Source: Desulfurivibrio sp. (lineage in GTDB: Bacteria; Desulfobacterota; Desulfobulbia; Desulfobulbales; SURF-16). From it: a DNA stretch of 64,000 nucleotides. Both the position numbers and the translations under genes were made by a program. Location: NCBI GenBank assembly GCA_003605035.1, contig QZKJ01000007.1:41560-105559 (forward strand). The letters are read 5' to 3'. The notes under the pieces are model-generated. The model was not told the DNA's origin and searched no databases. It worked only from the letters and a program-made list of their open reading frames with translations. Positions 5,011 to 62,215 of the stretch are shown here, piece by piece. Numbering within the stretch: the first letter of the stretch is position 1; each line of letters begins with the position of its first letter.

Positions 5011-6550
<1,540 letters not shown>

Positions 6551-8982: not shown

Positions 8983-8990
8983 GTTGTATC

Positions 8991-12445: not shown

Positions 12446-12489
12446 ATGCTTTCAGTCCGGTAGGCTGCGGATGGCAGGTTTATCGGCGG

Positions 12490-14532: not shown

Positions 14533-14556
14533 ACTTGCTTTTCCTCCTGATATTGA

Positions 14557-14605: not shown

Positions 14606-14717
14606 TCACAGTGTTGGGATGTTCAGTTATTTTTACAAGGTCTTTTTCCGCAGTGCTCAGCACGCTTTTCATGGCTTTTGCCGGGATTTCCGGATGGCAG
14701 CCTCTCTAAAGGCCTGT

Positions 14718-15236: not shown

Positions 15237-15241
15237 GTCCG

Positions 15242-20367: not shown

Positions 20368-20470
20368 AAGGCACTGAATGACAGATGTTGTAAGTTTTTT
20401 AATTCTTAAATGCCTTGCTGGTTCAGCCGGCGGCAAAATGAGCAGGATAATGATGAAAATGAGGAGCAAA

Positions 20471-40300: not shown

Positions 40301-40435
40301 ATTTGCCGATTGTTTTCACAAAAATAATGTAGTAATGACAGTTGTCTCCAGCCAGTACCACGGGAGACGTGCGTCCAAAATTCGCCTTAATTGCCATATA
40401 TCATTAATAAAATTGTGATGAGAAGGAGGAAAGTG

Positions 40436-42199
40436 ATGGTTCTTGATCCCACCAAGCACGCAGATTGGGAAATTGCTGAAGATGCTGAAAAAAATATGAA
40501 GACGGTTTACGAACTTGCGGAACAGCTCGGGCTGGAAAAGGAAGAGCTGCTGCCCCATGGCCATTATGTGGCCAAGCTCGATTACCGCAAGATTCTTGAC
40601 CGGTTAAAGGACAGGCCGGACGGAAAATATATTGACGTAACCGCCATCACCCCAACCCCGCTGGGTGAGGGAAAGAGCACCTGCGCCATGGGACTGGTGC
40701 AGGGCCTCGGCAAAAGAAACAAAAGCGTAATCGGCGCCATCCGCCAGCCATCCGGCGGTCCCACCATGAACATCAAGGGCAGCGCCGCCGGCGGCGGTCT
40801 GGCCCAGTGCATCCCGCTGACCCCGTTTTCCCTGGGTCTCACCGGGGATATCAATGCCATCATGAACGCCCACAATCTCGGCATGGTGGCCCTCACCTCC
40901 CGCATGCAGCATGAGGCCAACTACACCGACGAGCAGCTGGCCAAGAGGAATCTCAAAAGGCTGGATATTCATCCCAAGAAGGTGGAATTCGGCTGGATCA
41001 TCGATTTCTGCGCCCAGGCCCTGCGCAACATCACCATTGGCCAGGGCGGCAAAATGGATGGCTATACCATGCAGTCCAAGTTCGCCATTGCCGTAAGCTC
41101 CGAGATTATGGCCATTCTGGCCATCGCCACTGACCTCAAAGACATGCGCGAGAGAATCGGCAAAATCGTCGTGGCCTATGACCGGCAGGACCGGCCGGTC
41201 ACCACCGCTGACCTGGAGGTGGACGGCGCCATGACCGCCTGGATGGTGGAGGCCCTGAATCCCAATATGCTGCAGACTATCGAAGGCCAGCCGGTCATCG
41301 TCCATGCCGGCCCCTTTGCCAACATCGCCATCGGCCAGTCCTCGGTCATCGCTGACCGGGTGGCCTTGAAAATCGCCGATTACAACGTGACTGAAAGCGG
41401 CTTCGGGGCGGATATCGGTTTTGAGAAATTCTGGAATCTCAAATGCCGCTACAGCAAGCTCAAACCCCACTGCGCGGTGGTGGTCGCCACCATCCGGGCC
41501 CTCAAATGCCATGGCGGTGCCCCGATCCCGGTGCCCGGCAAGCCCATGCCCGAAGAGTACAAGAAAGCAAATGTCGGCTGGGTCGAGGCGGGCTGCCAGA
41601 ATCTCATCCATCATATCCAGACCGTGAAAAAGGCCGGCATCAATCCGGTGGTCTGCCTCAATGCCTTCTACACCGATACCGAAGAGGAGATCAAGGCGGT
41701 GCGCCGGCTCGGCGAGGCCGCCGGCGCCAGGGTCGCCCTGTCGCGCCATTGGCAGTATGGCGGGGATGGGGCGGTTGAATTCGCCGATGCGGTCATCGAC
41801 GCCTGCGAGGAGAAAAATGACTTCAAGTTCCTCTATGACCTGGACACCCCGCTGGCCAAACGCATTGAGCTGATCGCCAAAGAGGTCTATGGCGCCGACG
41901 GCGTCAGCTACACCCCGGAGGCCCAGGAGAAGCTGAAACGGATGGAGTCCGATCCGGAGATGAAGGAAATGGGCACCTGCATGGTGAAAACCCATCTCTC
42001 CCTGTCCCATGAACCGAGACTGAAAGGGGTGCCCAGGGGCTGGACCCTGCCGATCCGCGATATCCTCACCTACAAGGGGGCCGGTTTTGTCGTTCCCGTG
42101 GCCGGCGCCATCAGCCTGATGCCTGGCACGGCCTCAGACCCCGCTTACCGGCGCATTGATGTGGATGTGGAAACCGGCAAGGTGAAAGGCGTATTCTAA
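40436..42199 (+). CDS. fhs: Formate-tetrahydrofolate ligase
   Basis: The protein begins [19 protein letters not shown]... and carries [12 protein letters not shown] place the start at ATG 40436, preceded by AAGGAGGA. The track start at 40391 adds 15 unlikely residues. Confidence 0.96.
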
Positions 42200-42369: not shown

Positions 42370-44589
42370 ATGGCGCTTCCAGCACAGAAAATACCAGACA
42401 AGAAAGCTGGCCTCCGGACCACCGTCAAGGACCAGTCCGGCGCCGGCAAAACCAAGATCGGCGAGGTGCTCAGGAAGGAGGGGCATATCCTCAATACCCA
42501 GCTTGAGGAAGCCCTGGCCATCCAGAAGAAATCCGGCCAGCGGCTGGGCAGTATTCTGATCAAGCTCGGCTATATAGAGGACTCCACCATCCTCAATGTG
42601 TTAAGCCGGCTCCATAATTTCCCGCCTGTTGACATCAAGAAGGAACCGCCTAACCCGGAAATCTTCAAATCCGTCCCCTTTGAAGTCGTCAAAAAATATT
42701 GCGCCCTTCCTCTGCGGGTGACCGGCAAGACCCTGCAGGTCACCATGGCCGAACCCACGGACACCAACGCCGTGGAGGAACTCCAGTCTGAAGTGAAGAT
42801 GGTGCTGTCCGTCTGTGTCTCCACGGAAAAGGACATTTTTGAAGCCTATAAGAAATATTACAAGATCAGCGAGGAGGAATTCCGCCAGCTGACCGGCGCT
42901 GATGAGAAAATCGAGGAAGAAGAGGAAGATGTCACCAGTATCGATGACTTCGGCACCCTGGCCTCGGAGGCTGCCGAGGACATGGCCATCGAGGATAGCA
43001 GCGGCAGAGAGGCGGAAGAGTTTTCCGCCTCTGATGCGCCGATCATCAAGCTGGTGAACGGCATCCTCATCAAGGCGGTCAAGGACGGGGTCAGCGACAT
43101 CCATATCGAGCCGTACGAGAAGTCGCTGCAGGTCCGTTACCGTCTGGACGGCGCCCTCTACAAGTCGATGAATCTGCCGCTCAGTATCAAAAACGCCTTG
43201 AATTCCAGGGTGAAAATCCTGTCAAACCTTGATATCACCGAACGCCGTGTTCCCCAGGACGGCAGAATCAAGATGCGCATCGGCAGAAACAAGGTGGTTG
43301 ATTTCCGGGTCTCCACCCTGCCCACCCTTTTCGGGGAAAGTATTGTTCTGCGTATTCTCGATAAGGATTCACTCAACGTCGATCTGACCAAACTCGGCTT
43401 TGAGCCGCAGGTCTTCGCCACCCTGAAGCGCTGTCTGAACCGCCCCCAGGGGCTGCTGCTGGTTACCGGCCCCACCGGCAGCGGCAAGACGGTTACCCTC
43501 TATTCCGCCCTGAACTCGCTCAACAGTGAGGACACCAAGATTCTGACCGCCGAGGATCCGGTGGAGTTCAACTTCAAGGGGATCAACCAGGTCAATGTCC
43601 ATCAGGAGGTGGGCATGACCTTTGCCGCGGCCCTCAAGGCCTTTCTGCGGCAGGACCCGGATATCATCATGGTCGGTGAGATCCGTGACATGGAAACCGC
43701 CGAGATTGCCATCAAGGCGGCCATGACCGGCCATCTCGTCTTCTCCACCCTGCATACCAATGACTGCGCCGCCACCATCGGCCGTCTGGTTGATATCGGC
43801 ATTCCCCCCTATATGCTGGCCTCGGCCATCACCATGGTGCAGTCCCAGCGGCTGGGCCGCCGTCTGTGCCCGGCCTGCAAGGTGGAGATACCCCCGCCGG
43901 ACGCCAAGGAACTGCTTGGCATCGGCTTCCGGGAAGAACAGATCAAGGGACTGGCCAAGCTCTATGCCCCCAAGGGCTGCCCGGTCTGCCGCGGCGGCGG
44001 CTACAAGGGCAGGGTGGGTTTTTTTGAGCTGATGGAGGTTACCGATGAGGTGGCCAAGGCCATCGGCGCCGAGGTGCCTGAGGATCAGCTGCGCAAGGTG
44101 GCCATCCAGGAAGGCATGATTCCGCTGCGCAATGCCGCCATCCTCAAGGCGATCCAGGGCGTCACCAGTATCGACGAGGTGTTGAAGAAGACCGTCATTA
44201 CCGAAGAAAGTCTGCCGGCCTATCTGGTCAATCCGGATATTGAAAGATACGAGGACGGCGATGTCATTATCCGCCAGGGCAACTCCGACATTGATTTCTT
44301 CCAGTTGATTCAGGGGGCGCTGATGGTGGTCAAGGATGGCAAGAAAATTGCCGAAATCACCGAGCCCAACGAATATTTCGGTGAGATGTCGGCAATCTCC
44401 GGGGTGGTCCGTTCCGCCTCCATCCTCTCCAAGGGCAGATCCACCATCAAGCGTTTCCCCGGCGATAAAATCATGGAGATCATTGAAAAACATCCGCAGG
44501 TTGCCAAACATTTCTTCAAGACCCTGGTGACCCGTCTCGGTCAGGCCAATGACATCATCGTCAAGCTGGCCGAGAGTCGTGCTAGGTAG
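42370..44589 (+). CDS. PilB/GspE/MshE-family secretion ATPase with an N-terminal MshEN-type domain and a C-terminal cyclic-nucleotide-binding domain
   Basis: 739 aa. The ATPase core has Walker A (GPTGSGKT), Walker B (DPDIIMVGEIRD), a His box (TGHLVFSTLHTND) and a tetra-Cys motif (CPACK...CPVCRGGG). The N-terminus carries a tandem 24-aa MshEN motif (aa 29-81). The C-terminal ~130 aa form a cNMP-binding fold (YFGEMSAISGVVRSASI). Confidence 0.9.
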   Translation: MALPAQKIPDKKAGLRTTVKDQSGAGKTKIGEVLRKEGHILNTQLEEALAIQKKSGQRLGSILIKLGYIEDSTILNVLSRLHNFPPVDIKKEPPNPEIFKSVPFEVVKKYCALPLRVTGKTLQVTMAEPTDTNAVEELQSEVKMVLSVCVSTEKDIFEAYKKYYKISEEEFRQLTGADEKIEEEEEDVTSIDDFGTLASEAAEDMAIEDSSGREAEEFSASDAPIIKLVNGILIKAVKDGVSDIHIEPYEKSLQVRYRLDGALYKSMNLPLSIKNALNSRVKILSNLDITERRVPQDGRIKMRIGRNKVVDFRVSTLPTLFGESIVLRILDKDSLNVDLTKLGFEPQVFATLKRCLNRPQGLLLVTGPTGSGKTVTLYSALNSLNSEDTKILTAEDPVEFNFKGINQVNVHQEVGMTFAAALKAFLRQDPDIIMVGEIRDMETAEIAIKAAMTGHLVFSTLHTNDCAATIGRLVDIGIPPYMLASAITMVQSQRLGRRLCPACKVEIPPPDAKELLGIGFREEQIKGLAKLYAPKGCPVCRGGGYKGRVGFFELMEVTDEVAKAIGAEVPEDQLRKVAIQEGMIPLRNAAILKAIQGVTSIDEVLKKTVITEESLPAYLVNPDIERYEDGDVIIRQGNSDIDFFQLIQGALMVVKDGKKIAEITEPNEYFGEMSAISGVVRSASILSKGRSTIKRFPGDKIMEIIEKHPQVAKHFFKTLVTRLGQANDIIVKLAESRAR

Positions 44590-45717: not shown

Positions 45718-47715
45718 ATGGCAATCTCAAGAAACGGATGTGAAGGCTGTACAGAGATAACCTGCACCTCCACGAAAAATGTTCTTGCCAAAGACATCGC
45801 AAAAAATGTCATTACCGCCTACGACCGGGTAAAGATGCGCGGCATGTCGGCCTGTCTTTTCGGTTCCACCGGCACCTGCTGCCGCAACTGCAATATGGGA
45901 CCCTGCCAGATCATCGATGGCGTTGATGAGATGATCGGCGTCTGCGGCGCCACGGCCGACACGGTGGTTGCCCGCAATTTCTGCCGCACCATTGCCTCCG
46001 GATCCGCCGCCCACACCGACCATGCCCGGGAAATGGTCAAAGGCTTCATTGCCACGGCCAAGGGCGAAACCCCTCATGAAATCAAGGATGTCAACAAGCT
46101 GATGATGCTGGCCAACATCTTCGGCGTGGCCACCGAGGGCAAGGACAAAAATGCCATTGCCCTGGAAATCGGTGAACTCGCCCTGGCGGATTTCGGCAAG
46201 CAGGACGACAAGCCGGTCACCATGCTGAAGCGTGCCCCGAAAAAACGCCAGGAACTGTGGAAACGGCTGGGCATCGAACCGCGCGGCATTGACCGGGAGG
46301 TGGTGGAGATCATGCACCGCACCCACATGGGCGTAGATCAGGAATACCAGAATCTCATGCTGCAGGGGGCCCGCTGCGCCCTGGGCGACGGCTGGGGTTC
46401 CTCCATGCTCTCCACCGAACTGACCGACATCATGTTCGGCACCCCGGTGCCCCGGCGGTCCATCGTCGATCTCGGCGTGCTCAAACCGGACCAGGTGAAT
46501 GTCACGGTGCACGGCCATGAGCCGCTGCTGGCCGAGGCCCTCTGTCTGGCCGCCCAGGACGAGGAACTGCTCGCCCTGGCCCGCAAGGTCGGCGCCAAGG
46601 GCATCAACCTGGCCGGGGTCTGCTGCACCGGCAATGAAATTCTCATGCGGCGCGGCATTCCGGTGGCGGCAGGCTTCATCCAGCAGGAAATGGCCCTGGC
46701 CACCGGCGCCATCGAGGCCATGGTGGTTGATGTGCAGTGCATCATGCAGTCGCTCGCCGAGGTGGCCAAATCCTTCCATACCGACGTGATCACCACCAAT
46801 TACCGGGCCAAGATGCCCGGCGCGGTGCACATCCAGTTTAATGAGGAGGACGCCCTGGGCAGCGCCAAGGAGATTCTCAAAAAAGCCGTCAACAACTTCA
46901 AGAAACGCGGCGAATTCTTTATTCCCCAGGACAACAAGCTCGATGTGGTGGTCGGTTTCAGCCATGAAACGATCAATTACATGCTGGGCGGCCGTTTCCG
47001 TTCAAGCTACCGGCCGCTCAACGACAACATCATCAACGGCAGAATCCGGGGCGTGGCCGCCATTGTCGGCTGTGACAACTACAAGTTTCCGGACAACAAT
47101 CATGAAATCATCGCCCGGGAACTGATCAAGAATGATGTGCTGGTGCTGGCCACCGGCTGCGCGGCCACCGGGCTCGGCCGGGTCGGGCTGGTCCGTCCCG
47201 AGGCCGCCCAGTTTGCCGGCCCCGGTCTGCGCGAGGTGTGCGAGACGGTTGGCATGCCTCCGGTGCTGCACTGCGGATCCTGCGTGGATAACAGCCGGCT
47301 GCTCATTGCCGCCACCGAGATGGTGCGCGAAGGCGGCCTGGGTGACGACATCTCCTCCCTGCCGCTAGCCGGCACCGCGCCGCTGTGGATGAGCGAGAAG
47401 GCGGTGGCCATTGGTCAGTACTTTGTGTCCAGCGGCGCCTATGTCATCTTCCAGAGTCTGCCGCTCACCGGCTCCAAGAATTTCCATAAATTCATGACCG
47501 AGGGAATGGATGAAATTTACGGCGGCTGCTGGGATATTGAAGAGGATCCGTTGAAGCTTGCCCGGAAGATGATTGCCAGGATCGATCTCAAGCGCAAGGA
47601 ACTCGGCATTGACAAGAAACGCGAAAGGGTTCTCTTTGATATGGAGATGCGCCGTGATCTGGGCGCCGGCAGCCCCCTGAAGGATGTCGGCTGCCACGGT
47701 CCGACGCCGGCCTGA
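45718..47715 (+). CDS. cooS: Anaerobic Ni-Fe carbon monoxide dehydrogenase catalytic subunit
   Basis: 665 aa. The N-terminal B/D-cluster Cys pattern is present (CLFGSTGTCCRNCNMGPC), and the C-cluster region has HGHEP, CCTGNE and GSCVDN. Confidence 0.95.
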   Translation: MAISRNGCEGCTEITCTSTKNVLAKDIAKNVITAYDRVKMRGMSACLFGSTGTCCRNCNMGPCQIIDGVDEMIGVCGATADTVVARNFCRTIASGSAAHTDHAREMVKGFIATAKGETPHEIKDVNKLMMLANIFGVATEGKDKNAIALEIGELALADFGKQDDKPVTMLKRAPKKRQELWKRLGIEPRGIDREVVEIMHRTHMGVDQEYQNLMLQGARCALGDGWGSSMLSTELTDIMFGTPVPRRSIVDLGVLKPDQVNVTVHGHEPLLAEALCLAAQDEELLALARKVGAKGINLAGVCCTGNEILMRRGIPVAAGFIQQEMALATGAIEAMVVDVQCIMQSLAEVAKSFHTDVITTNYRAKMPGAVHIQFNEEDALGSAKEILKKAVNNFKKRGEFFIPQDNKLDVVVGFSHETINYMLGGRFRSSYRPLNDNIINGRIRGVAAIVGCDNYKFPDNNHEIIARELIKNDVLVLATGCAATGLGRVGLVRPEAAQFAGPGLREVCETVGMPPVLHCGSCVDNSRLLIAATEMVREGGLGDDISSLPLAGTAPLWMSEKAVAIGQYFVSSGAYVIFQSLPLTGSKNFHKFMTEGMDEIYGGCWDIEEDPLKLARKMIARIDLKRKELGIDKKRERVLFDMEMRRDLGAGSPLKDVGCHGPTPA

Positions 47716-47785: not shown

Positions 47786-50482
47786 ATGAAATCGGGAAGT
47801 CGTTTAGAAAGGATTCTGACCTCCGGGGGCTTTGCCGTGACCGGAGAACTGGGACCGCCTAAAAGCGGGGATCCCGAGGTCGTCAGGAAGAAGGCCGCCA
47901 TACTGCGCGGCCATGTGGACGCGGTCAACATCACGGACTGCCAGACTGCCATTGTCCGCATGTCAAGCATCGCCGCCGGACTCATCGCCCAGCAGGAGGG
48001 CGTGGAGCCGGTCATCCAGATGACCTGCCGTGACCGCAACCGCATCGGCATGCAGAGTGATATCTTAGGCGCCGCGGCCCTTGGTCTGAAAAATCTTCTC
48101 TGTCTGACCGGCGATCACCAGAAATTCGGCAACCACCCCGGCTCCAAGGGGGTATTTGATATGGATTCCATTCAGCTGCTCGGCATGGTCCGCGGCATGC
48201 GGGATGAGAAGAAGTTTCAATGCGGCGAGGCGATCAAATCCGCCGAGCCGCGGCTCTTTCTCGGCTGCGCCGCCAATCCCTTTGCCAATCCCTTTGAGTT
48301 CCGCGCCCCGCGGCTGGCCAAAAAGGTGGCGAGCGGCGCCGACTTCGTGCAAACCCAGATTATCTATAATGTTGAAAAATTCGCCAGGTTCATGGAAATG
48401 GCCCGCGACCTGGGGTTGCCCGAGAAGGTTTATATCCTCGCCGGCGTTACCCCGCCCAAATCGCTGGGCATGGCCCGCTACATGAAAAGTTCGGTGCCCG
48501 GCATGGATGTGACCGACGAGGTGATCAACCGCATGAAGGATGCCGCTGACAAGCAGGAAGAGGGCATCAATATCTGCGTGGATATCATCAATCGGGTCCG
48601 GGAAATCAAAGGGGTTTCCGGCGTGCATATCATGGCCATCGAGTGGGAGGAGGCGGTACCTGAGATCGTCAAGCGCGCCAAGCTCGAACCGCGGCCGGTA
48701 TTTGCCGAGGATGAGCGGCAGCCGGTGCAGGCAAAAGAGGTCATTGAAGTTGTTGCGCCTGCGGTGCAGCCGGCCGCGGCGCCCCCTGCGCTTGACACGG
48801 ACAAGCTGCTGGCTGAGGCCAGAGCAGAGGCGGAAAAAATCATTGCCGGCGCCCGTGCTGAAGTTGAAAAAATGCGAGCCGCAGCTGTTCTGCAAACAAC
48901 AGCCGGCTCAGCCCCAGAATATGAAGATGCAGGAGAGCATGAGATGAATGAAAAAGAACGTCAGATGGCGTTGCAGTCTGTGCAGATGGGTCTGAACGCC
49001 CTGAAAAAGGCCTTTAACCTGAGCGATGAGCAGTTTGAGGCCCTGGCTAGCTTTGCCAGCGCCGAGGCAGTGCTGAAACGCCAGCCGCCTGAAACCGCAA
49101 GCGCTGGATCTGTGATTGCACCAGTTGCCGCCGAGATGGTCAAACCCGCCCCGGATAAGGCGGCAGAAGAGGCCAACAAGGCCGCTGAAGCCAGGGACGC
49201 GGCAGAGGCAAAAAAGGCCGCAGAGGCAAAAGCTGCCGAAGAGGCCAGGAAAGCTGCTGAGGGAAAAGCTGCGGACGAGGCCAGGAAGGCCGCTGCGGCC
49301 AAGGCTGCTGAAGAAGCCAGGAAGGCTGCCGAAGCCAAAGCCGCTGAAGAGGCCCAAAAGGTAGCTGAAGCCAAAAAAACCGCTGATGCCAAAGCTGCGG
49401 AAGAGGCCAAGGCAGCAGAAGAGACCAAAAAGGCTGCTGAGGCAAAGGTAGCAGTCGCGCCTAAGGCCGTTGCCCCTGCCGGCGATCTGGCGGTAGCCGC
49501 GCTGGCCGTTGAAAAAACGCCTTTTGCCGAGCGCGCCAAAAAGATCCCGGCCGCTTCCTATCAGGTCAAATATACGGGACAGATTAAAGAGACGCTGCTC
49601 GGCAGCGGCGATAAGGCAATCAAAGTCGGTGGTGAATCCTCCATGCCCTTCCATCTTTTTGAAGGGGCCATGCCCAATAAGCCGCTGATCGCCATGGACG
49701 TGCTGGATGTGCAGCCCGAGGAGTGGCCGGACTCGCTGGCCCGCCATTTCAGCGGGGTGCTGGATAATCCGCTGGCCTGGGCCAGAAAATGCGTTGATGA
49801 CTACCAGGCGGAAGCACTCTGCCTCTCCCTGGTCAGCACCGATCCCAACGGCATGAACAGGAGCGCCGCGGAGGCGGCCAAGGTCGCCGCCGAGGTGATC
49901 AATAATATCAATGTGCCGATTATTATCTGGGGCTGCGGCAACGCCGACAAGGATACCGAGACGCTGCGGGAAATCACTTCGCTCACCGGCGACAAAAAGG
50001 TGTGCCTGGCGCCCCTTTCCGACAGCAATTACCGCTCCCTGGGCGCCACCGCCATGGCCTTCCAGTATCCCATGGTCGCTGCTTCGCCCATTGATGTCAA
50101 TCTCGCCAAACAGCTCAATATCCTGCTCGAGAACCTGGGGGTTTCCCTGAACTCCGTCATGATGGATCCGTCAGTCGGCGCTCTCGGCTACGGCATCGAG
50201 TATACCTATTCCGTCATGGAGCGCATCAGGCTGGCCGCGCTTACCCAGCAGGATGAAAAACTGCAGGTGCCGATCATCTGCAATCTGGGCCGGGAGGTCT
50301 GGAAGGCCAAGGAGTGTCGGCTTCCCTCTGATGCCGTGCTGGGAGATCAGGAGAGAAGAGGGGTGATGATGGAGGCGATCACTGCCACCTGCATGCTGCT
50401 GTCAGGCGGTGAGGTGCTGATCATGCGGCATCCCAAGGCCATCAATCTCACCAAGTCTCTGATCAACAGCCTGATAAGCTAA
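47786..50482 (+). CDS. Fusion protein: acetogen-type methylene-THF reductase (MetF) domain, a ~280-aa linker with Ala/Lys/Glu repeats, and a corrinoid Fe-S protein small subunit (AcsD/CdhD) domain
   Basis: One uninterrupted 898-codon ORF. Residues 1 to ~300 are MetF-like (VTGELGPPK, NITDCQTAIVRMSS, QMTCRDRNR, LCLTGDH). Residues ~590-898 are AcsD-like (VGGESSMPFHLFEG, IIWGCGNADKD, DPSVGALGYGIEYTYS). Confidence 0.9.
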   Translation: MKSGSRLERILTSGGFAVTGELGPPKSGDPEVVRKKAAILRGHVDAVNITDCQTAIVRMSSIAAGLIAQQEGVEPVIQMTCRDRNRIGMQSDILGAAALGLKNLLCLTGDHQKFGNHPGSKGVFDMDSIQLLGMVRGMRDEKKFQCGEAIKSAEPRLFLGCAANPFANPFEFRAPRLAKKVASGADFVQTQIIYNVEKFARFMEMARDLGLPEKVYILAGVTPPKSLGMARYMKSSVPGMDVTDEVINRMKDAADKQEEGINICVDIINRVREIKGVSGVHIMAIEWEEAVPEIVKRAKLEPRPVFAEDERQPVQAKEVIEVVAPAVQPAAAPPALDTDKLLAEARAEAEKIIAGARAEVEKMRAAAVLQTTAGSAPEYEDAGEHEMNEKERQMALQSVQMGLNALKKAFNLSDEQFEALASFASAEAVLKRQPPETASAGSVIAPVAAEMVKPAPDKAAEEANKAAEARDAAEAKKAAEAKAAEEARKAAEGKAADEARKAAAAKAAEEARKAAEAKAAEEAQKVAEAKKTADAKAAEEAKAAEETKKAAEAKVAVAPKAVAPAGDLAVAALAVEKTPFAERAKKIPAASYQVKYTGQIKETLLGSGDKAIKVGGESSMPFHLFEGAMPNKPLIAMDVLDVQPEEWPDSLARHFSGVLDNPLAWARKCVDDYQAEALCLSLVSTDPNGMNRSAAEAAKVAAEVINNINVPIIIWGCGNADKDTETLREITSLTGDKKVCLAPLSDSNYRSLGATAMAFQYPMVAASPIDVNLAKQLNILLENLGVSLNSVMMDPSVGALGYGIEYTYSVMERIRLAALTQQDEKLQVPIICNLGREVWKAKECRLPSDAVLGDQERRGVMMEAITATCMLLSGGEVLIMRHPKAINLTKSLINSLIS
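49154..49450 (+). repeat. Coding low-complexity repeat (KAAEEA/RKAAEAKAAEE)n within the MetF-AcsD linker
   Basis: The translation reads DKAAEEANKAAEARDAAEAKKAAEAKAAEEARKAAEGKAADEARKAAAAKAAEEARKAAEAKAAEEAQKVAEAKK.... Repetition is also visible at the nucleotide level. Confidence 0.8.
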
Positions 50483-50516: not shown

Positions 50517-52721
50517 ATGTCAAAAATAATCTGTTCTGCTGCTATCCGAGGCGCCCATAAGATCACTGATATGGCCGAGGAGAAATTTGAGGCAGCTTTA
50601 AAGAAATATGGTGCGGAGCAGGCGGTCTCCTTTCCCAATACCGCCTATTTCCTGCCGGTTATCTACAGCATGCTGGGTGCCAAGGTGGAAAAACTGGGCG
50701 ATATGAAGGATATCTTCCAGGAGTGCCGCAAGCTGCTGCCCCCCATGGTGAGCGAGCATAACTGGCTGCCCTATCTCGCCCCGGCCCTTGATGCCGGCAT
50801 GGCCACCTTTTTCGCCGAGGAGATGTATGAGGCGGTCCGCTATCTGGAGCAGCCCGAATACTATACCAAGACCGAGGATCCGACTGCCGGCAATATCTGG
50901 CTGGGCGCGGCGGATGACGTAATCTTCCGCAAACGCGGGGTGGAGTTTGTCGATGGCACGGCCCCCGGCTTTGCCGCCATCATGGGCTCGCCGGCCGACA
51001 AGGAGGTGGCCAGTAAGATCGCCCTGGAACTGCAGGAAAAAAATCTCTACATCTTCATGCATGACCACTCCAACGGGGTGAGAATGCCCGAGCAGCTGGT
51101 AAATAACAACGTTCAGGTCGGCTGGAACACCCGCCTGGTCCCCTTTGGCGACAGCTATACCACCGCGGTTTTCGCCATCGGCTTTGCCTGCCGCGTGGCC
51201 ATGGCCTTCGGCGGCATCAAGCCGGGCGATTACCGGGGCAACCTGATCTACAACAAGGACCGTACCTTTGCCTTTGTCATGGCCTTCGGCCCGGTCAGCG
51301 ACGAGTGGTACGCCAATGCCGCCGGCGCCATCAACTGGGGTTTCCCGACCATTTCCGACTATGATATTCCCGAGGTGCTGCCCACCGGCATCTGCACCTA
51401 TGAGCATGTGGTGAGCAAGGTGCCCCATGAGGAAATCGTCCAGAAGGCCATTGAGGTGCGGGGTCTCAAGGTCAACGTTGCCAAGATCGATATCCCCATG
51501 TCCTTCGGTCCGGCCTTTGAGGGTGAGAGGATCAGGAAGGATGATCTCTACATGGAATGCGGCGGCGGCAGGACCAGCGGCGTCGAGGTGCTCATCTCCA
51601 AGGACATGCACGATGTCGTGGACGGCGAGGTCATCCTCGAGGGCAAGGACATCTGTGACATCTCCCAGGGCCAGAACCTGCCCATCGCCATCCTGGTCGA
51701 GGTGGCCGGCCGCGAGATGCAGTCGGATTTCGAGCCGATCCTCGAGCGTCAGTTCCACCACCTGATCAACTACATCCAGGGCATCATGCACATCGGCCAG
51801 CGCAACATCATGTGGGTCCGCATCGGCAAGGCCGCGGTGGAGAAGGGTTTCTCCTTCAAACACATCGGCAAGGTGCTGCACGGCAAGCTGCATCAGGAGT
51901 TCGGCGCCATTCTCGACAAGGTGCAGGTGAAAATCTATACCGAACAGGCCAAGGTGGAGGAGGTGCAGGAACTGGCCAAGAAGGTCTATGCCGAGCGCGA
52001 CTTGCGGCTGGGCAACATGACCGATGAAACCGAGGAGGTTTTCTACTCCTGCACCCTCTGCCAGTCCTTTGCCCCCAGCCACGTCTGCGTCATCACCCCG
52101 GAAAGGGTGGGCATGTGCGGCGCCTACAACTGGCTGGACGGCAAGGCCTCCTTCCAGATCAACCCCACCGGGCCGAACCAGCCGATCGCCAAGGGTGAAT
52201 GCAGCGATCCGGTGCTGGGCGATTTCGTCGGCATCAACGAGTTCGTCAACCAGGCCTCCCGCGGCGCGGTGCCGGCGGTGAGCTGCTACTCGCTGATGAC
52301 CAACCCCATGACCGCCTGCGGCTGTTTTGAGGCCATTGCCGCCATGCTGCCCCAGTGCAACGGCATCATGGTGGTAAACCGCGACTACATGGGCATGACC
52401 CCCAGCGGCATGAAGTTCACCTCCCTGGCCGGTATGGCCGGCGGCGGGGCCCAGACCCCGGGTTTCATGGGCGTCAGCAAGCACTATCTGACCAGCCCGA
52501 AACTTTTCATGGCCGAAGGTGGTCTTAAAAGAGTGGTCTGGCTGCCCAAGATGCTCAAGGAAGAGCTGAAGGAAAAACTGATGGCGCGCTGCGAAGCCAT
52601 CGGCATGCCGGAGCTTTTTGACATGATCGCTGACGAGGAAGTGGGAACCACCGAAGAGGCGGTACTGGCCTTTCTCAAGGAGAAAGGTCATCCGGCGCTC
52701 AAAATGGAAACAGTTATGTAG
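50517..52721 (+). CDS. acsB: Acetyl-CoA synthase (CO-methylating; A-cluster subunit)
   Basis: 734 aa. The A-cluster ligands are present (CTLCQSFAPSHVC...GMCG, and the Cys-Gly-Cys in MTACGCFE). Confidence 0.96.
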   Translation: MSKIICSAAIRGAHKITDMAEEKFEAALKKYGAEQAVSFPNTAYFLPVIYSMLGAKVEKLGDMKDIFQECRKLLPPMVSEHNWLPYLAPALDAGMATFFAEEMYEAVRYLEQPEYYTKTEDPTAGNIWLGAADDVIFRKRGVEFVDGTAPGFAAIMGSPADKEVASKIALELQEKNLYIFMHDHSNGVRMPEQLVNNNVQVGWNTRLVPFGDSYTTAVFAIGFACRVAMAFGGIKPGDYRGNLIYNKDRTFAFVMAFGPVSDEWYANAAGAINWGFPTISDYDIPEVLPTGICTYEHVVSKVPHEEIVQKAIEVRGLKVNVAKIDIPMSFGPAFEGERIRKDDLYMECGGGRTSGVEVLISKDMHDVVDGEVILEGKDICDISQGQNLPIAILVEVAGREMQSDFEPILERQFHHLINYIQGIMHIGQRNIMWVRIGKAAVEKGFSFKHIGKVLHGKLHQEFGAILDKVQVKIYTEQAKVEEVQELAKKVYAERDLRLGNMTDETEEVFYSCTLCQSFAPSHVCVITPERVGMCGAYNWLDGKASFQINPTGPNQPIAKGECSDPVLGDFVGINEFVNQASRGAVPAVSCYSLMTNPMTACGCFEAIAAMLPQCNGIMVVNRDYMGMTPSGMKFTSLAGMAGGGAQTPGFMGVSKHYLTSPKLFMAEGGLKRVVWLPKMLKEELKEKLMARCEAIGMPELFDMIADEEVGTTEEAVLAFLKEKGHPALKMETVM

Positions 52722-54235: not shown

Positions 54236-57200
54236 ATGTCGACAATACATCTTGAAATAAACGGCATGGAGCTTGTCGCCGAGCCCGGCCTGACCATTCT
54301 CGAAGTGGCCAGGCGCTCGGAGATCGACATCCCCTCTCTCTGCTCGGTGAACGGCAAAAACAGCCAGGCGCCGTGCGGCCTCTGTGTCGTTGAGATAGAA
54401 GGCATGGGCGAGCCTGTCCGTGCCTGTGCTACCCCGGCCGAAGACGGCATGAAGATCACCACCTCTTCCCCCGCTCTGGTGAAGATCCGCCAGGACAGGC
54501 TGGCCAGGATTTCCGCCAGCCATTTCGGCGACTGCAAGGCCCCCTGCAATCTGACCTGTCCCGGCCAGATCAATGTGCAGGGTTATATCGCCCATATCAG
54601 CAAGGGTGAATATGAAGAGGCCATGCGGCTCATCATGGAGCGCAATCCCTTTCCCTTTTCCGTCGGACGGGTATGCCCCCGTTTCTGTGAAACCCGCTGC
54701 CGCAGAATTCTGGTGGATGACCCGGTTTCCATCAACCATCTGAAACGCTTTGTGGCAGACTGGTGCATGACCAACCATATCGATCTGAAAATTCCCCGGG
54801 AAAAGGCCACCGGCAAACGGGTGGCCGTGATCGGCGGCGGACCCGCAGGGCTCACCGGCGCCTATTATCTGGCCCGCAAGGGGCATGATGTCACCATTTT
54901 TGAGGCCAATCCCAAGCTGGGCGGCATGCTGCGCTACGGCATCCCCACCTATAAGATTGACCGCAACGTGCTCGATTACGAGACCAACATGATCCTGCGC
55001 ATGGGCATTTCGGTGAAGCTGAGCCAGCGCTGGGGGGTGGATTTCACCCTGCAGGATCTGAAGGATCAGGGTTATCATGCCATCCTGCTGGCCACCGGCA
55101 CCGGGCTGGACCGGCCGCTGGAAATTCCCGGCGGCAGACTGCCCAAGGTGCTGACCGCCACCAAGGTCCTGCGCGATGCCGCGGAAGGCAAACGCATCAA
55201 GTACGGACTGCGCGCCGCGGTCATCGGCGGCAACAATATTGCCATGGAGGTGGCCCGTACCCTGCTGCGCCAGGGGGTGGACCAGGTGACGGTGGTCTAT
55301 CCCCGCTCCCAGGAAGAGATGGTGGCCAACCAGCGCGTCATCCGCGAGGCGGAGAGGGAAGGGGTGCAGTTTCTGCTCATGGCCTCGCCGGTGCAGATCT
55401 GCGAGGTCGACAACGGCGGCCTCAGCGTTGAACTGGTGAGGATGAGACTGGGTGAGCCTGATGCCCGCGGCATCAGGCAGCCGGAGGCTATCCCCGGCAC
55501 CACCAATACCATCATTGTCGATACCCTGGTCACCTCCCTTGGCCAGATGGCCTGCGTGGACGGCTTCAAGGGCGGGGACCTGGAGGAGCAGATCGAGATC
55601 GCTCCCAACAATACCATCAATGCCTCACCGCGGGATTTCACCACCTCGGTGCAGGGCGTCTATGCGGCCGGCGATGCGGTGAACGGCCCCCGCACGGTCA
55701 TCCAGGCCGTGGTCGGCGCCCGCCGGGCCGCGGAAAATATCCATGCCTACATGATGGATGCTCCCAAGGAGGCGGGGGAGAACCGCTTTAATTTCACCCG
55801 CGGCAAAACCTTTGACCAGGTCCATCTGAGCAACTTTGACGGCGTCAATATCAAGCTGCGGGAAAAGATGCCCACCAGGCCTCCCCAGACGGCGGTGCAG
55901 GATTTTGACGTGATCAAGCTCGGCTTCAATGAGCAGATGGCCCGCAAGGAGGCGGAACGGTGTCTCTCTTGCGGCTGCAACGCCTTTGAAAATTGTGATC
56001 TCAAAAGGCTCAACATTGATTTCAATGTCAACATCAATAAAACAGGCATGGGTGAGAAACCGCTCTATAAAAAGGACGATTCCCATCCGGTGCTCAAGGT
56101 GGACCTCAACAAGTGCATCTTCTGCCAGCGCTGCATGCATGCCTGCGAGTATGGCGCGGTCACGGTCACGGCCGGCCATATTGATGCCAATAATGTCGCC
56201 TCACGCCTGCAGCTCGCCTTTAATGACAAATGCGTCAACTGCGGCAAGTGCGCGGAAAACTGCTCCACCGGGGCCCTGACCAAAAAGGTTGCCCTGGTGC
56301 CGGTGATCAGCGAGGCGGTGCGTGATGTGCGCACCACCTGTCCTTACTGCGGGGCCGGCTGTCAGCTTACCCTGCGGGTCAAGGGCAATACCATCATGGA
56401 GGTGACGGCCGATCCTGATCTGGCCCCGAATTACGGCGCCCTGTGTGTCAAGGGCCGTTTCGCCTATGACTTCGTCCGGGACAAGGAACGTCTGACCAGG
56501 CCGCTGGTCAGACGGCACGGCCACCTGGTGGAGACCAGCTGGGATGATGCCCTGGAGATCGTCGCCCGTAATTTCTTTGATCTGAAGGCCATGTACGGGC
56601 CTGATTCCATTGCTGGATTTTCCTGCGCCAGGGCGACCAACGAAGAAAATTATCTGATGCAGAAATTCATGCGGACGGTGATCGGCACCAACAACATCGA
56701 ACATTGTGCAAGGCTTTGACACGCTCCCACGGTGGCCAGTCTGGCCCTCACGTTTGGCAGCGGCGCAATGACCAACTCCATTGCCGATGCCTCCAGGACC
56801 GATCTGTTTCTCATGATCGGCAGCAACCCTGACACCAGTCATCCCACCATCGGCCTGCGCATTCACCAGGCGGTGGACCGGGGCGCGAAACTGATCGTCG
56901 TCGATCCCCGCCGGACACAGCTGGCCGAGCGGGCCGATCTCTGGCTGCGCATCAAGCCGGGCACCGATGTGGCCCTGCTCAACTCCATGATGCAGGTGAT
57001 CATCGAGGAAGATCTGCTGGATAAGCGCTTCGTGGCGGAGCGCACCGAGGATTTCGATGAACTGGAGCGGCTGGTGAAAAAATACCGGCCCTTCATGGTG
57101 GAAAAAATCACCGGCATCCCGGCCGAGCAGATCCGCCAGGCGGCCCGCATGTATGCGGCCCAGGGCCGGCACGCCATTTACCATGGCATGGGCATCACCC

Positions 57201-58351
57201 ATTACGTCACCGGCACCGACCGGGTGAAGAGCATTGCCAACCTCGCCATGCTGTGCGGCAAGGTCGGGGTGGAAGGCGGCGGCTGCAACCCGCTGCGCGG
57301 CCAGAACAATGTGCAGGGCGCCTGCGACATGGGGGCCCTGTTCAATACCCTGCCCGGCTATGCCAGCCTGAGCAACGAAGACCTGTTCGACCGCTATGAA
57401 CGGATGTGGAAGGTCAAGCTGCCCAGGCGTCCCGGCAAACCGGCCACCGAGGTGTGGGACAACATCCTGAAGGGGGAAATTCATTCCCTGTACATCTTCG
57501 GCGAGGACCCGGCAGTGGCGGACGCCAACATCTCCCACGTGCAGGCTGCCCTGGAAAAATGTGATTTCGTGGTGGTGCAGGACATCTTCATGACCAAAAC
57601 CGCCCAGATGGCTGATGTGGTGCTGCCCGCCGCCTGTTTTGCTGAAAAGGACGGCACCTTCACCAGCACCGAGCGCCGGGTGCAGCGGGTGCGCAAGGCA
57701 GTCGACCCGCCCGGGGAAGCCCGGCCGGACTGGAAGATCTTCGGCGATCTCTCCAGGAAAATGGGCTACGAGATGAACTACCGCTCGCCCAGGGAGGTTT
57801 TCGAAGAGGTTTGCACCATTCTGCCCCAGTATGCCGGCTTGAGCTATGAACGGCTGGAGAAAGTGGGCCTGCAGTGGCCGGTGCCCACGGCGGATCATCC
57901 CGGCACCCCGGTCCTGCACACCAGGGAGTTCACCCGCGGCAGGGGCCTTTTTATTCCGGAGGATTATATCCCGCCGGTTGAGGTGGCCGATCAGGAGTAT
58001 CCCCTGCAGTTCACCACCGGACGTGATCTGTCCCGCTACAACTTCAGCAGCATGACCGGCAAGACCCGGGAGATCAATGCCATCAGTCCCGAGTGCTTTG
58101 CCGAGTTCCACCCCGAGGACGCGAAACTTTTCGGCATTGAGGACAAAGATTCGGTACGCTTGACCTCGCGCCGCGGCTCAGTGGTGCTGCGGGCCAAGGT
58201 GACGGACCGCACCCAGCAGGGTACGGTATTTGCCACCTACAACCATGTTGAGGCGCTGGTCAATCTGCTGACCCTGGACGCCCTTGACCGCCTGTCCCGG
58301 ACGCCGGAGTACAAGCTGTGCGCCATCAAGGTGGAAGTGGTTGATGCATAA
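54236..58351 (+). CDS. fdhA: Selenocysteine-containing formate dehydrogenase catalytic subunit fused to N-terminal 2Fe-2S ferredoxin and GltD-like NAD(P)H/FAD modules (UGA-Sec at 56717-56719)
   Basis: Track ORFs 54236..56719 and 56732..58351 are in the same frame and separated only by a TGA. The junction reads [30 protein letters not shown], the FDH active-site motif. The MopB 4Fe-4S motif is CPYCGAGC. The GltD-like part carries VIGGGPAGLTGAYYL. Confidence 0.9.
56734..56746 (+). other. SECIS-like hairpin downstream of the fdhA UGA
   Basis: GGCCA-GUC-UGGCC begins 15 nt after the UGA. This is positionally equivalent to the apical stem-loop of the E. coli fdhF SECIS. Confidence 0.6.
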
Positions 58352-58460: not shown

Positions 58461-61400
58461 ATGGGTCACGCAGAAGAAAGTAAATCGGGAGCAGTGCTGG
58501 TCGTAGGCGGCGGAGTCGCCGGCGTCCAGGCGGCCCTCGACCTGACCGAACTCGGCTATTATGTTTATCTGGTTGAAAAATCAGCGGCTGTGGGTGGCGC
58601 CATGGCCCAGCTTGACAAAACCTTCCCAACCAATGACTGCTCACTCTGAATTCTCGCGCCGAAGCTGGTAGAGGCCGGTCGGTCTCCCAATATCGAAATA
58701 CTGAGCAACGCCGATTTCCTTTCCCTGGCTGGCAAGCCCGGGGATTTCCAGGCCAGGATCCGCCTGAACCCCCGCTACATCGATGCGGACAAATGTACAG
58801 CCTGCGGACTGTGCACCCAATACTGCCCGCGGCATATGGTGGATGCCTATAACGAGGGGCTGAAAATCACCCGGCCCATTCATATCGATTATCCCCAGGC
58901 CGTGCCGGCCACCTATTACATTGATCCCGGCGCCTGCCTGCATCTCAAGCATGGCACCTGTAAAATCTGTGTGCCGGTATGCCGCAGCCACGCCATTGAT
59001 TTCAGCCAGCAGCCCGAGGAACGCACCCTGCAGGTCGGGGCGGTGATCATGGCCCCGGGTTTTGGCAAGGTGCCGGATAAGGCCCTGGAGAAATACAGCT
59101 ACGGCAAGCATCCCGACGTGGTCACCAGCATCGAGTTTGAAAGGCTGCTCAATCCTTCCGGCCCCTTCCAGGGCGAGGTCCGCTGCATCTCCGACCATCG
59201 TCATCCGCACAAAATCGCCTTTATTCAGTGCGTCGGCTCCCGGGACATCGGCTGTGACAACGGCTACTGTTCATCGGTCTGCTGCATGTACTCCATCAAA
59301 GAGGCCATGGTGGCCAAGGAGCATGATCCGGACTGTGAGATCACCATCTTCTACATGGACATGCGCACCCAGGGCAAGGATTTTGACGCGGCCCGCACCC
59401 GGGCTGAAGAGCAGTTCGGCATCAAGTTTGTCCGGGCCAAGGTGGCTGATGTCATGCCGTGGGGCAAACAGCTGAAACTGACCTACTCCACCCTGGCCGC
59501 CAGTCACCATTTCGAGGCCTTTGACATGGTGGTCCTCTCCGTCGGGCTTGACTCGCCCAAAAGCGCAGGGGAGCTGGCGCAGATCGGCGGTTTCGCGCTC
59601 AATAAATACGATTTCTGCCAGACCGATACCTTTGCCCCGCTCAATACCAGCAGGGAAGGCATCTTTGTGGCCGGCGCCTTTCAGGGACCGAAAGACATCC
59701 CGGAAAGCGTCACCCAGTCCAGCGCCGCCGCCGGTATTGCCTCAGCCCTGATCAAACAGCAGCGCGGCACCGGCATTGTGCATAAGGCCTATCCCGACGA
59801 ACAGCAGGTCAAGGCCGGGGATGAGGTGCGCATCGGCGTGTTTGTCTGCCGCTGCGGCATCAACATTGCCGGTACGGTTGATGTGCCGCAGGTGGTCGAT
59901 TATGCCGGCAACATGGAAAACGTCGTCTATTTCAGCGACAGCCTGTACAGTTGCTCCCAGGATGCCCAGGAGGTGATCAAGGAGCAGATCAAAAAACACA
60001 AGTTGAATCGCATCGTCATGGCCGCCTGCTCGCCGCGGACCCACGAGCCGCTTTTCCAGGAGACCCTGAAAGACGCCGGCCTCAACCGCTCGCTGTTTGA
60101 GATGGTCAATATCCGCGACCAGTGCTCCTGGGTGCATGCCAATGAACCGGACGAGGCAACGGATAAGTCCAGGGATCTGGTCCGCATGGGGGTTGCCAAG
60201 GCCCGGCTGAGCCAGCCCCTGCCCGAACAGACCGTGCCCGTCACCCCCCAGGCCCTGATTATCGGCGGCGGGGTGGCTGGCCTTACCGCGGCCGAGAACC
60301 TGGCCAATCAGGGGTTCCAGTGCTATCTCATTGAAAAAAATGACAGACTGGGCGGTCATGCGGTCAAGGCCCAGGATACCCTGCAGGGCGAAAACACCGC
60401 GAAGATGATGCAGGAACTGATTCATCGCGTGCAGCAGCATGAGAAGATCGAGGTGATGGCCGGGGCCGAGCTGGCGGCGGTCAACGGTTTTGTCGGCAAC
60501 TTTTCCTCGGTGGTCAAAATGACCAGAGGCACTGAGGAGACGGAACAGACCATTGATCACGGGGTGATTATCATCGCCACCGGCGGCAGGGAACACCGGC
60601 CGGACAGGTATCTGCTCGGTCAGGTGAAAAAGGTCGTCACCCAGCAGGAGCTGGAGACCCGTCTGGCCGGCAAGGCCAGGGACCGGGCTCCGGAATCGGT
60701 GCTGATGATCCAGTGCGCCGGTTCCCGCGGGGATGATCTCAAGTACTGCAGCAAGGTATGCTGTAATACGGCCGTAAAAAATGCCTTGAAGATCAAGGAG
60801 ATCAATCCCGCCTCCCAGGTGATTGTCCTGTACCGGGATATGCGCACCTATGGGTATGCCGAGGACGCCTATCAGCTGGCCCGCGAAAAAGGGGTGGTTT
60901 TCATCCCCTACGAGCTGGACCGCAAGCCCGAGGTGGAAAAGAAGGGCAACAGGGTGCAGGTCAACTTCTTTGATCCCATCCTGCAGGAAGATGTCTCGCT
61001 CAGTCCCGAACTGATTGTGCTCAGTGTCGGCATTGTGCCGGAGGATACGGAAAACCTCAGCAAGCTGCTGAAGATCCCGGTCAATGAAAACAAATTCTAT
61101 CTGGAGGCCCACGTTAAACTGCGGCCGGTGGAGCTTGCCGTGGATGGCGTCTATGTCTGCGGGCTGGCCCATTCCCCCAAACCCCTGGACGAGGTGATTG
61201 TCCAGGCCCAGGCCGCGGCTGCCAAGGCCTCCATCCCGCTGATCAAGGGCTTTGTCTCCGTTGAGCCGATCGTCTCCTCGGTGGACCAGGAGATCTGTAT
61301 CGGCTGCGGCATCTGCGCCGGCCTCTGTCCCTATCAGGCAATCCAGATGATCAAGGTGGACAACAAAAAGAAGGCGGAAACCATTGCCGCCTCCTGCAAG

Positions 61401-61505
61401 GGGTGCGGCATCTGCTCTTCCCGCTGCCCGACCTTTGCCATCTCCATGGGCGGTTTTACCCGGGAACAGATCAATGCCCAGATCAAGGCGTTCGGGGAAA
61501 TTTGA
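58461..61505 (+). CDS. hdrA: Selenocysteine-containing heterodisulfide reductase subunit A-like flavoprotein, tandem double-HdrA architecture (UGA-Sec at 58647-58649)
   Basis: Track ORFs 58461..58649 and 58836..61505 are in the same frame. My hand translation across the gap gives ...[28 protein letters not shown]..., the HdrA NDCSMC(I) motif with U at the second Cys. There are two GxGxxG modules ([15 protein letters not shown] at aa 14 and [15 protein letters not shown] at about aa 600), several ferredoxin CxxCxxCxxxCP motifs, and the internal CRCGINI domain. Confidence 0.9.
58671..58686 (+). other. SECIS-like hairpin downstream of the hdrA UGA
   Basis: GAGGCC-GGUC-GGUCUC forms a 6-bp stem (including one G-U pair) with a GGUC loop, as in E. 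coli fdhF. It begins 21 nt after the UGA. Confidence 0.5.
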
Positions 61506-61615: not shown

Positions 61616-62215
61616 ATGACCATTGAAGAATTCAACCCCAAGATCCTGGGGTTTCTCTGTAACTGGTGCTGTTACGCCGCCGCCGATGCGGCAGGGGTCT
61701 CCCGTTACCAGTATCCGCCCAACCTGCGCACCATCAGGGTCATGTGCACCGGACGCATCGACCCCGCCTTTATCCTGCAGGGTTTTGCCGAGGGCGCGGC
61801 CGGCATCTTCACCGGCGGCTGACAGCTTGGTGAATGCCATTACCAGGTTGGTAATTACGACGCCATGAGTGTCAATGCGCTGGTCAAGCGGGTGCTGGAG
61901 GGCATCGGGGTAAATCCCGCCCGTTATAATCTGCAGTGGGCCTCAGCTGCCGAGGCCCCACGCTTTGTCAAGCTCATCACCGAGTTTACCAAAAAGATTC
62001 GCGAGCTGGGGCCGCTCGGTCATGCCGAGGGCATCAAGCCCGATGAGCTCAAGGCGCGGATCAACAAGGCAGTTGAGCTGGTCAACAGCCAGAAGCTGCG
62101 CATGAGCTTCGGCACCACTACCAGGGCCCTGCGCAAGGACAATGATTACAGCGATGCCCATATCGTGGAAGTGATTGATGCCAAGCTGGGCAAGGCCATT
62201 GCCGGCGGTCTGTAA
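61616..62215 (+). CDS. mvhD: Selenocysteine-containing MvhD/VhuD-like [2Fe-2S] electron-transfer protein (UGA-Sec at 61820-61822)
   Basis: Track ORFs 61616..61822 and 61865..62215 are in the same frame. The junction reads ...GAAGIFTGG-U-QLGECHYQVGNY, the MvhD GCxxGxCHY motif with U at the first Cys. The N-terminus is also MvhD-like (KILGFLCNWCCY...RVMCTGRIDP). Confidence 0.88.
61839..61855 (+). other. SECIS-like hairpin downstream of the mvhD UGA
   Basis: ATTACC-AGGTT-GGTAAT begins 16 nt after the UGA. Confidence 0.5.

Follow-up and report, generated by a model that had tools for sequence, protein, structure and literature searches.

A fused methylenetetrahydrofolate reductase and corrinoid protein subunit in Desulfobulbales, with a modular connector and a probable internal translation start

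Why would a bacterium encode, in a single open reading frame (ORF), both the enzyme that makes methyl-tetrahydrofolate (methyl-THF) and a subunit of the protein that receives the methyl group, and would this frame give rise to one protein or to two? These questions are raised by the metF-acsD gene of Desulfurivibrio sp., which lies in a stretch of 64,000 nucleotides of contig QZKJ01000007.1 (positions 41,560 to 105,559; assembly GCA_003605035.1), referred to here as the window. The gene encodes a methylenetetrahydrofolate reductase (MTHFR, MetF) that is joined through a long connector to the small subunit (AcsD) of the corrinoid iron-sulfur protein (CFeSP). The answer favoured here, with moderate confidence, is that of a genuine and selected fusion, which would tether a MetFV-type reductase to the CFeSP and would have a probable second product starting at Met387 inside the gene. 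The ORF and its two enzyme domains are as follows.

47786..50482, + strand: full metF-acsD fusion ORF; ATG start, 898 codons plus stop, no internal stops
47786..48685, + strand: MetF (MTHFR) domain of the MetFV type, amino acids (aa) 1-300; PF02219 over its full length, TIM barrel in the AlphaFold2 (AF2) model
49496..50479, + strand: AcsD (CFeSP small subunit) TIM barrel with a short conserved N-terminal lead-in, aa 571-898

An earlier note, made from the letters of the window, had described an 898-codon ORF that begins as MetF and ends as AcsD/CdhD. According to Pfam and NCBIfam both domains are complete, and it is thus confirmed that a complete MTHFR and a complete AcsD are encoded in one ORF. 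The MTHFR match (PF02219) extends over aa 7-298 and over profile positions 2-286 of 287 (E 1.5e-36), and most of the domain is modelled with a predicted local distance difference test score (pLDDT) above 80. It is 62-73% identical to standalone MetF proteins whose genes adjoin metV; standalone MetF with 62-72% identity is found in Chloroflexota, anammox Planctomycetota, and Actinomycetota. At the other end of the protein, CdhD (PF03599) is matched by aa 604-843 (E 5.7e-42; 144 bits versus a cut-off of 24.8) and the NCBIfam AcsD subfamily NF003376 by aa 593-897 (profile positions 7-312 of 313; 372.8 bits versus a cut-off of 280). Among solved structures, the nearest chains are small subunits of the CFeSP, namely 2h9a_B (5.8e-83), 4c1n_B (about 6e-83), and 4djd_D (8.5e-78). 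Exact-sequence look-ups returned no record for the window protein, for the Desulfurivibrio alkaliphilus protein (P0076), or for P0344.

Each half thus has well-known counterparts. The AcsD/CdhD proteins of Carboxydothermus hydrogenoformans (2H9A chain B) and Moorella thermoacetica (4DJD chain D) can be aligned over their whole length with aa 594-896, and here, too, the partner gene acsC is present, two genes downstream of the fusion; the solved AcsD proteins, however, are standalone and have a length of ~310-323 aa, whereas the fusion carries about 570 extra N-terminal residues made up of MetF and the connector. The full-length MTHFR domain is shared with the MetFV reductase of acetogens (Moorella MetF, Moth_1191, with MetV and HdrABC-MvhD), from which the present gene differs in that metV is not adjacent in the window and in that the C-terminus runs on into AcsD. 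MTHFR is likewise fused to a methyl-transfer enzyme in the YitJ-type homocysteine S-methyltransferase/MTHFR (NF006396), the MTHFR half of which is matched at 7e-66, but there the partner domain is another one, it is attached to the opposite end of MTHFR, and a long connector is missing. With 222.6 bits versus a cut-off of 453, and with only profile positions 311-587 matched, the fusion is below the threshold of NF006396 and is therefore not a member of that family.

Could metF and acsD be two genes in reality, which were joined only because the repetitive DNA was sequenced or assembled wrongly? The connector is indeed repetitive and of low complexity, and the G+C content of third codon positions (GC3) is lower there (0.51-0.57 at 48686-49453) than in the two enzyme domains (0.75 at 47786-48685 and 49508-50479). 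More than 120 independent protein clusters and 28 genomes, however, share this open frame, among them the closed chromosome of D. alkaliphilus; the longest exact repeat amounts to 12 nucleotides; and conserved protein modules are located inside the connector. An artefact is, thus, extremely unlikely, and this rival can be regarded as refuted. The drop of GC3, as an observation in its own right, could mean that codons are under weaker selection in the connector or that the connector came from elsewhere.

The spread of the fusion was assessed on two sets, namely the 120 best database matches (protein clusters, with a total above 120) and the 80 best loci from contigs of one genome per species. 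The 120 best matches are 66-93% identical to the window protein and 830-941 aa long, except for one partial sequence of 706 aa, and all of them contain both Pfam domains; their source names are Desulfobulbaceae, Desulfurivibrionaceae, Desulfurivibrio alkaliphilus, Desulfolithobacter, and similar ones. Fusions of the Desulfobulbales type account for 24 of the best 80 loci, and the gene cluster around them is conserved. The arrangement, which the earlier note had expected to be unusual, is ordinary for Desulfobulbales, with more than 120 clusters and 24 species-level genomes: the metF-acsD fusion is the standard, automatically annotated form in this order. The note had also named a refuting outcome, in which relatives would have this form as their usual annotation and the function of the linker would be well known; the first half of this applies, whereas a known function of the connector was not encountered. 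In a full-text literature search no description of a MetF-AcsD fusion was found. The fusion itself is abundant in databases. Two observations described below appear to be new, namely the conserved hairpin and the evidence, drawn from synonymous sites, for internal initiation of translation.

Fusions with other connectors are present in other Desulfobacterota, and among the best 80 loci four further lineages (L013, L015, L026, and L064) carry them. The fused proteins have a length of about 1077 aa in L013 and L015, about 1011-1039 aa in L026 (Dissulfuribacterales), and 897 aa in L064 (Caldimicrobium). The connectors of L013, L015, and L026 contain coiled-coil-like stretches and tetratricopeptide-like repeats (GNVALHNKDYPKAVEAFKKALEIAPDD; in L013 and L015 at about aa 540-680), while that of Caldimicrobium is an (EVKP)n repeat, the record of which contains a run of masked N. 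The fusion arose from neighbouring metF and acsD genes; in L028 (Ca. Desulfaltia) and L030 the two are found adjacent but separate. Among relatives, the connector has undergone many insertions and deletions, yet it is never interrupted, and selection therefore holds the frame open; where ORFs are split (L007, L018, and L021), the breaks are inside the enzyme domains.

What, then, is kept in the connector? The earlier note had treated aa 300-590 as a linker. This region does separate the two enzyme domains, but it is no plain linker, since it holds a conserved helix and a helical hairpin of fixed length. By sequence comparison and modelling, the 270-aa connector is shown to be modular, in the order flexible segment, 30-aa helix, flexible segment, 48-aa hairpin, flexible segment, and predicted Ala/Glu/Lys helix of variable length, with the following elements.

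48686..48796, + strand: variable Pro/Ala-rich segment 1, aa 301-337; 22-35% column identity, pLDDT below 50
48797..48886, + strand: conserved helix 1, aa 338-367, present in the long product only; AF2 helix H338-367
48887..48934, + strand: variable segment 2, aa 368-383, predicted to be disordered; Shine-Dalgarno (SD)-like motif at its 3' end
48935..49078, + strand: conserved helical hairpin, aa 384-431; AF2 helices H384-409 and H414-431
49079..49153, + strand: Pro/Ala-rich flexible segment, aa 432-456
49154..49453, + strand: Ala/Glu/Lys repeat, aa 457-556, a variable-length spacer predicted as a single long helix
49454..49495, + strand: short variable joint, aa 557-570

Among the homologues, variable segment 1 ranges from 26 to 49 aa, and helix 1 has 30 aa in nearly all of them, with 70% identity across aa 341-360. 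The hairpin is the most constant element. It comprises exactly 48 aa in 120/120 sequences, identity across aa 381-420 is about 80%, and its two helices are predicted with a pLDDT of 90-96 when modelled alone by AF2. A profile of the hairpin, run against 8,477 ORFs of the loci, detected fused proteins only, including L026 (2e-12) as well as L015 and L013 (about 1e-7), and matched neither L064 nor any unfused gene in that set. Outside the family no counterpart was obtained: Pfam, searched with the connector up to an E-value of 1, returned a single spurious low-complexity match; Foldseek with the conserved module gave no match in the PDB; and phmmer with aa 336-436 against 1.84 billion representatives yielded 7 matches, which were fragments of the same family plus one spurious repeat protein.

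The repeat at the centre of the linker, noticed earlier as an Ala/Lys/Glu repeat, is borne out at 49154-49453, with a composition of 46% Ala, 20% Glu, and 19% Lys. At the DNA level it displays periods of 18, 36, and 72 nucleotides with 64-79% matches (Tandem Repeats Finder) and is thus old and diverged; its longest exact repeat of 12 nucleotides makes a collapse or expansion during assembly, against which the reads were to be checked according to the earlier note, unlikely. One helix of 81 residues (H468-548) is predicted by AF2 with a pLDDT of 50-72. Per 100 aa, the repeat contains 19 opposite-charge pairs at i/i+4 and 27 at i/i+3, and Leu, Ile, and Val are nearly absent. The whole spacer (aa 432-572) varies between 81 and 178 aa among homologues; in two of them (P0101 and P0058) it is rich in Ala and Pro rather than in Ala, Glu, and Lys.

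Helical spacers rich in Ala, Glu, and Lys are known from domain II of TolA, from ER/K single alpha-helices, and from engineered (EAAAK)n linkers, and swinging-arm linkers are found in the E2 component of 2-oxoacid dehydrogenases. The connector resembles these in its composition, predicted helix, variable length, Pro/Ala-rich flanks, and small helical domain; a match of sequence or fold, however, was not obtained for it.

The second question, that of one product or two, arises from a site immediately at the beginning of the hairpin.

48931..48937, + strand: internal SD-like AGGAGAG, in the codons Ala382-Gly383-Glu384
48944..48946, + strand: ATG of Met387, in frame with the ORF, at which a 512-aa product may start; 6 nucleotides after AGGAGAG

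Both elements had been pointed out in the earlier note, and their position was confirmed, with the ATG being codon 387. In the window as such, AGGAG-N5-9-ATG occurs about as often as chance would predict (15 matches versus 13 expected), and the significance of the site consequently derives from the comparison with relatives only. For this, codons and folding were compared in 22 Desulfobulbales genes. Met387 is invariant in the 120-sequence alignment and is encoded by ATG in 22/22 genes. Gly383 has the codon GGA in all of the 22 genes, in which no other Gly codon is used so rarely (203 of 1,393; 14.6%). Among 42 invariant Gly columns this is the sole one with a single codon, and among 198 conserved four-fold-degenerate columns it is the sole one with zero entropy. 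Codon 382 ends in A in 20 of the 22 genes. The fixed bases are AGGAGA/G. Furthermore, the 50-nucleotide window of the mRNA at the ATG folds more weakly than the gene average in every gene compared (z = +1.05 to +2.7, mean +1.85), its median being within the least-structured 2.8% of windows, and the G+C content of the ATG region is mostly 0.40-0.50 (0.56 in one gene) versus 0.47-0.64 for whole genes.

It might nevertheless be argued that there is one product only and that AGGAG and ATG are conserved for reasons other than initiation, without any 512-aa protein being made; conceivable constraints are an unstructured mRNA or a codon preference, a translational pause between the domains, or the protein motif Ala-Gly-Glu-x-x-Met. 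Several observations point in this direction and thus weigh against the favoured reading. Besides the chance frequency of the pattern in the window, Ala-Gly-Glu and Met387 are part of a conserved peptide motif and their conservation is partly at the protein level, for which reason a signal at the RNA level can be argued from the synonymous positions only. Weak folding and low G+C content near the ATG are partly due to a peptide rich in Glu, Lys, Asn, and Asp. The 22 genes are phylogenetically related and not independent, the control being the other 197 four-fold columns, which share the same tree. Finally, the fused lineages L013, L015, and L026 have the hairpin without a conserved Met at position 387, and the short product is therefore not essential to the fusion as such. 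What a constraint on the protein could not do is to fix the rarest Gly codon in 22/22 genes while 41 other Gly codons and 197 four-fold codons vary; moreover, the fixed bases are precisely the core of an SD sequence, at canonical distance from an invariant ATG and in an unstructured stretch. A single product is, on this evidence, rather unlikely.

Internal initiation of translation at Met387 is, from these comparisons, probable; it would give a plausible but putative 512-aa product consisting of hairpin, spacer, and AcsD. The idea of two products, put forward in the earlier note, has thereby gained comparative support, since synonymous sites are conserved and the mRNA is weakly structured in 22/22 genes; the short product itself stays a candidate. 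An internal promoter was also considered as its source, but no promoter-like site was found on the + strand within the gene upstream of 48944. Two database gene calls that begin at Met387 (P0122 and P0123) were examined as a possible natural split; the contig of P0122 is uninformative, because within its 520 nucleotides the frame is open upstream and the sequence diverges downstream.

In-frame internal starts giving rise to two isoforms are known from ClpB (95/80), IF2 (alpha/beta), CheA (long/short), and the carboxysome protein CcmM (58/35). As in those genes, an SD-like sequence and a candidate start codon are present in frame inside the ORF, from which a full-length product and one truncated at its N-terminus would result; in contrast to them, the short product would be without one of the two enzymes altogether, and a small conserved hairpin would form its N-terminus.

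The whereabouts of the pathway's other partners have to be considered as well. An AcsE-type pterin-binding gene was not found in the window, either by Pfam among likely-gene ORFs of at least 150 aa or by tblastn with a Moorella MeTr probe. One might think that the fusion replaces AcsE, with the AcsD barrel taking the methyl group directly from methyl-THF in the style of the archaeal gamma-delta CFeSP. In line with this, acsE is missing from every Desulfobulbales cluster compared, and AcsE-like proteins match Pfam CdhD weakly, which points to a shared ancestry of pterin-binding TIM barrels. This rival is, however, largely refuted and very improbable. Clear AcsE orthologues, 67-71% identical to the AcsE of L026, are encoded in D. 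alkaliphilus, D. dismutans, and metagenome-assembled genomes of Desulfobulbaceae, and L013, L015, and L026 have the fusion and yet keep acsE in the cluster, the order in L026 being metF-acsD, acsB, acsC, acsE, fdh. By tblastn, AcsE-like genes were detected in eight loci outside Desulfobulbales, three of them confirmed by PF00809. The earlier statement that AcsE is absent thus holds within the window; a loss from the lineage is contradicted by the orthologues with about 70% identity elsewhere in Desulfurivibrio and Desulfobulbaceae. For D. alkaliphilus, Supplementary Table 6 of PMC12827605 lists an AcsE match of 1.9e-50 with 89% coverage, in agreement with AcsE being encoded elsewhere, and a MetF match of 1.3e-120 with 99% coverage (BLAST with KEGG reference queries); the AcsD and AcsE queries were those of Moorella, and presumably so was the MetF query. 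In two Desulfobulbales genomes acsE was found alone, about 4.7-7.5 kb from the gene of RACo, the corrinoid reductive activase. These relocated acsE/RACo loci (L082, in D. alkaliphilus CP001940, 2,300,903-2,317,793, and L083), in which HSDR_N_2 and DAHP-synthase genes follow, represent a second conserved locus of the pathway.

A similar picture is obtained for MetV. In about 50 other loci, including those of all other fused lineages, metV (PF12225) is located directly upstream of metF, and mvhD and hdrA-like genes are likewise found upstream of metF in relatives. With a MetV probe, metV was not found in the window or in the Desulfobulbales loci, so that metV is not a neighbour of metF here; MetV orthologues are encoded elsewhere in Desulfobulbaceae, once in a Fer4–MvhD–MetV trio. 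As orthologues of both AcsE and MetV exist elsewhere, the fusion replaces neither of them. The hairpin was also considered as a substitute for MetV, and this was rejected because L013, L015, and L026 carry both.

The fusion is embedded in a Wood-Ljungdahl cluster, in which its closest neighbours are the following.

45718..47715, + strand: acsA/cooS (carbon monoxide dehydrogenase), directly upstream of the fusion; PF03063, order kept in relatives
50517..52721, + strand: acsB (acetyl-CoA synthase), directly downstream of the fusion; PF03598, PF19436
52772..54127, + strand: acsC (CFeSP large subunit), partner of the AcsD domain; PF04060, PF03599

The first part of the cluster consists of nifU, nifS, a thyX-like gene, fhs, a gene for a T2SSE-type ATPase with a cyclic-nucleotide-binding domain, and folD; after folD there follow acsA/cooS, the fusion, acsB, acsC, formate dehydrogenase, an hdrA-like gene, and an mvhD-like gene. 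The genes acsA, fusion, acsB, and acsC are contiguous, with the same order in relatives, and the locus of the homologue P0046 has an identical order from nifU to the hdrA-like gene, stopping short of any mvhD-like position. The T2SSE-family ATPase (MshEN plus T2SSE, with the cyclic-nucleotide-binding domain at its C-terminus; 42370-44589, +) is located between fhs and folD and occupies the same cluster position in a relative. The fhs ORF (40391-42199, +) was called from TTG 40391; ATG 40436 is suggested as the true start, because AGGAGG and ATG are found at 40424-40438 and the Pfam match begins at residue 24.

Downstream of acsC, the formate dehydrogenase alpha gene (54236-58351, +) would be one gene across an in-frame TGA at 56717-56719 (HCARL-U-HAPTV), which probably encodes selenocysteine; its N-terminus contains 2Fe-2S, GltD-like, and FAD/NAD(P)-binding domains. 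The HdrA-like flavoprotein (58461-61505, +) has an in-frame TGA at 58647-58649 and is likely a second selenoprotein; in a relative, the gene is called with the same split into 62 aa and ~900 aa. In the MvhD/FlpD-like protein (61616-62215, +) an in-frame TGA at 61820-61822 is located at the usual Cys site (FTGG-U-QLGECHY). Judged by their sequence, fdhA, hdrA, and mvhD would, thus, be three consecutive putative selenoprotein genes. Further away, two adjacent large ORFs on the + strand, 19267-20367 (366 aa, with an AGGAG-ATG start) and 20378-22426 (682 aa), have no Pfam match up to an E-value of 1, and the genes of an ATP synthase (alpha, fused b/delta-like, a, and beta; 536-6483, -) adjoin a chemotaxis cluster (6715-16873) with cheA/W/R/B, a methyl-accepting chemotaxis protein, and a GGDEF-EAL response regulator. 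An Rfam scan of the window revealed no structured RNA family.

How would the fusion work? In the favoured reading, the connector would tie the catalytic subunit of a MetFV-type reductase to the CFeSP small subunit, and methyl-THF would be made beside the proteins (AcsE, AcsC/AcsD, and AcsB) that hand its methyl group on to acetyl-CoA synthase; MetV and AcsE, the genes of which are located elsewhere, would be added as subunits of their own. The 48-aa hairpin would most likely serve as an element of protein docking or oligomerization, and the Ala/Glu/Lys helix as a long, semirigid spacer. In Desulfobulbales, ribosomes would also start at Met387 within the mRNA to produce the 512-aa protein of hairpin, spacer, and AcsD. 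This second start would uncouple the dosage of AcsD from that of MetF, so that AcsD could be supplied in excess from one gene. What the data show are the fusion and its conservation, the modular build of the connector, and the conservation of SD and ATG as nucleotides; a benefit from tethering, a role of the hairpin, and the actual production of the short protein are what we infer from them. The AF2 models give no reliable arrangement of the domains (predicted template modelling scores of 0.48 and 0.36), and, as the connector is long and partly flexible, tight channelling of the substrate is unlikely; co-localization or co-assembly would be more likely. In a more far-reaching version, the two isoforms would build a Wood-Ljungdahl "metabolon" scaffold, in which the long form ties MetFV(-Mvh/Hdr) to the CFeSP, the short form represents additional hairpin-bearing CFeSP, and the hairpin is a previously undescribed docking module that assembles both forms or recruits AcsE or acetyl-CoA synthase; this version is offered as a tentative and, at present, unlikely extension.

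For the Wood-Ljungdahl pathway we know of no description, and met none in the literature searched, of a physical link between the corrinoid protein of its carbonyl branch and MTHFR, the enzyme with which the methyl branch ends. The energetic and structural wiring of MTHFR is a question that concerns acetogens and, equally, autotrophic sulfur bacteria, among them cable bacteria and sulfur disproportionators. In databases, the fusion is named either "subunit delta" only or "MTHFR" only, and reconstructions of the pathway can therefore miss one of the two functions; in the genome paper on D. hydrothermale, MTHFR is listed outside the cluster, and it is noted there that the pathway is incomplete according to KEGG. 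The conserved tether, the family-specific hairpin, and the probable second start are each amenable to testing, for which cultured carriers, such as Desulfurivibrio alkaliphilus, exist.

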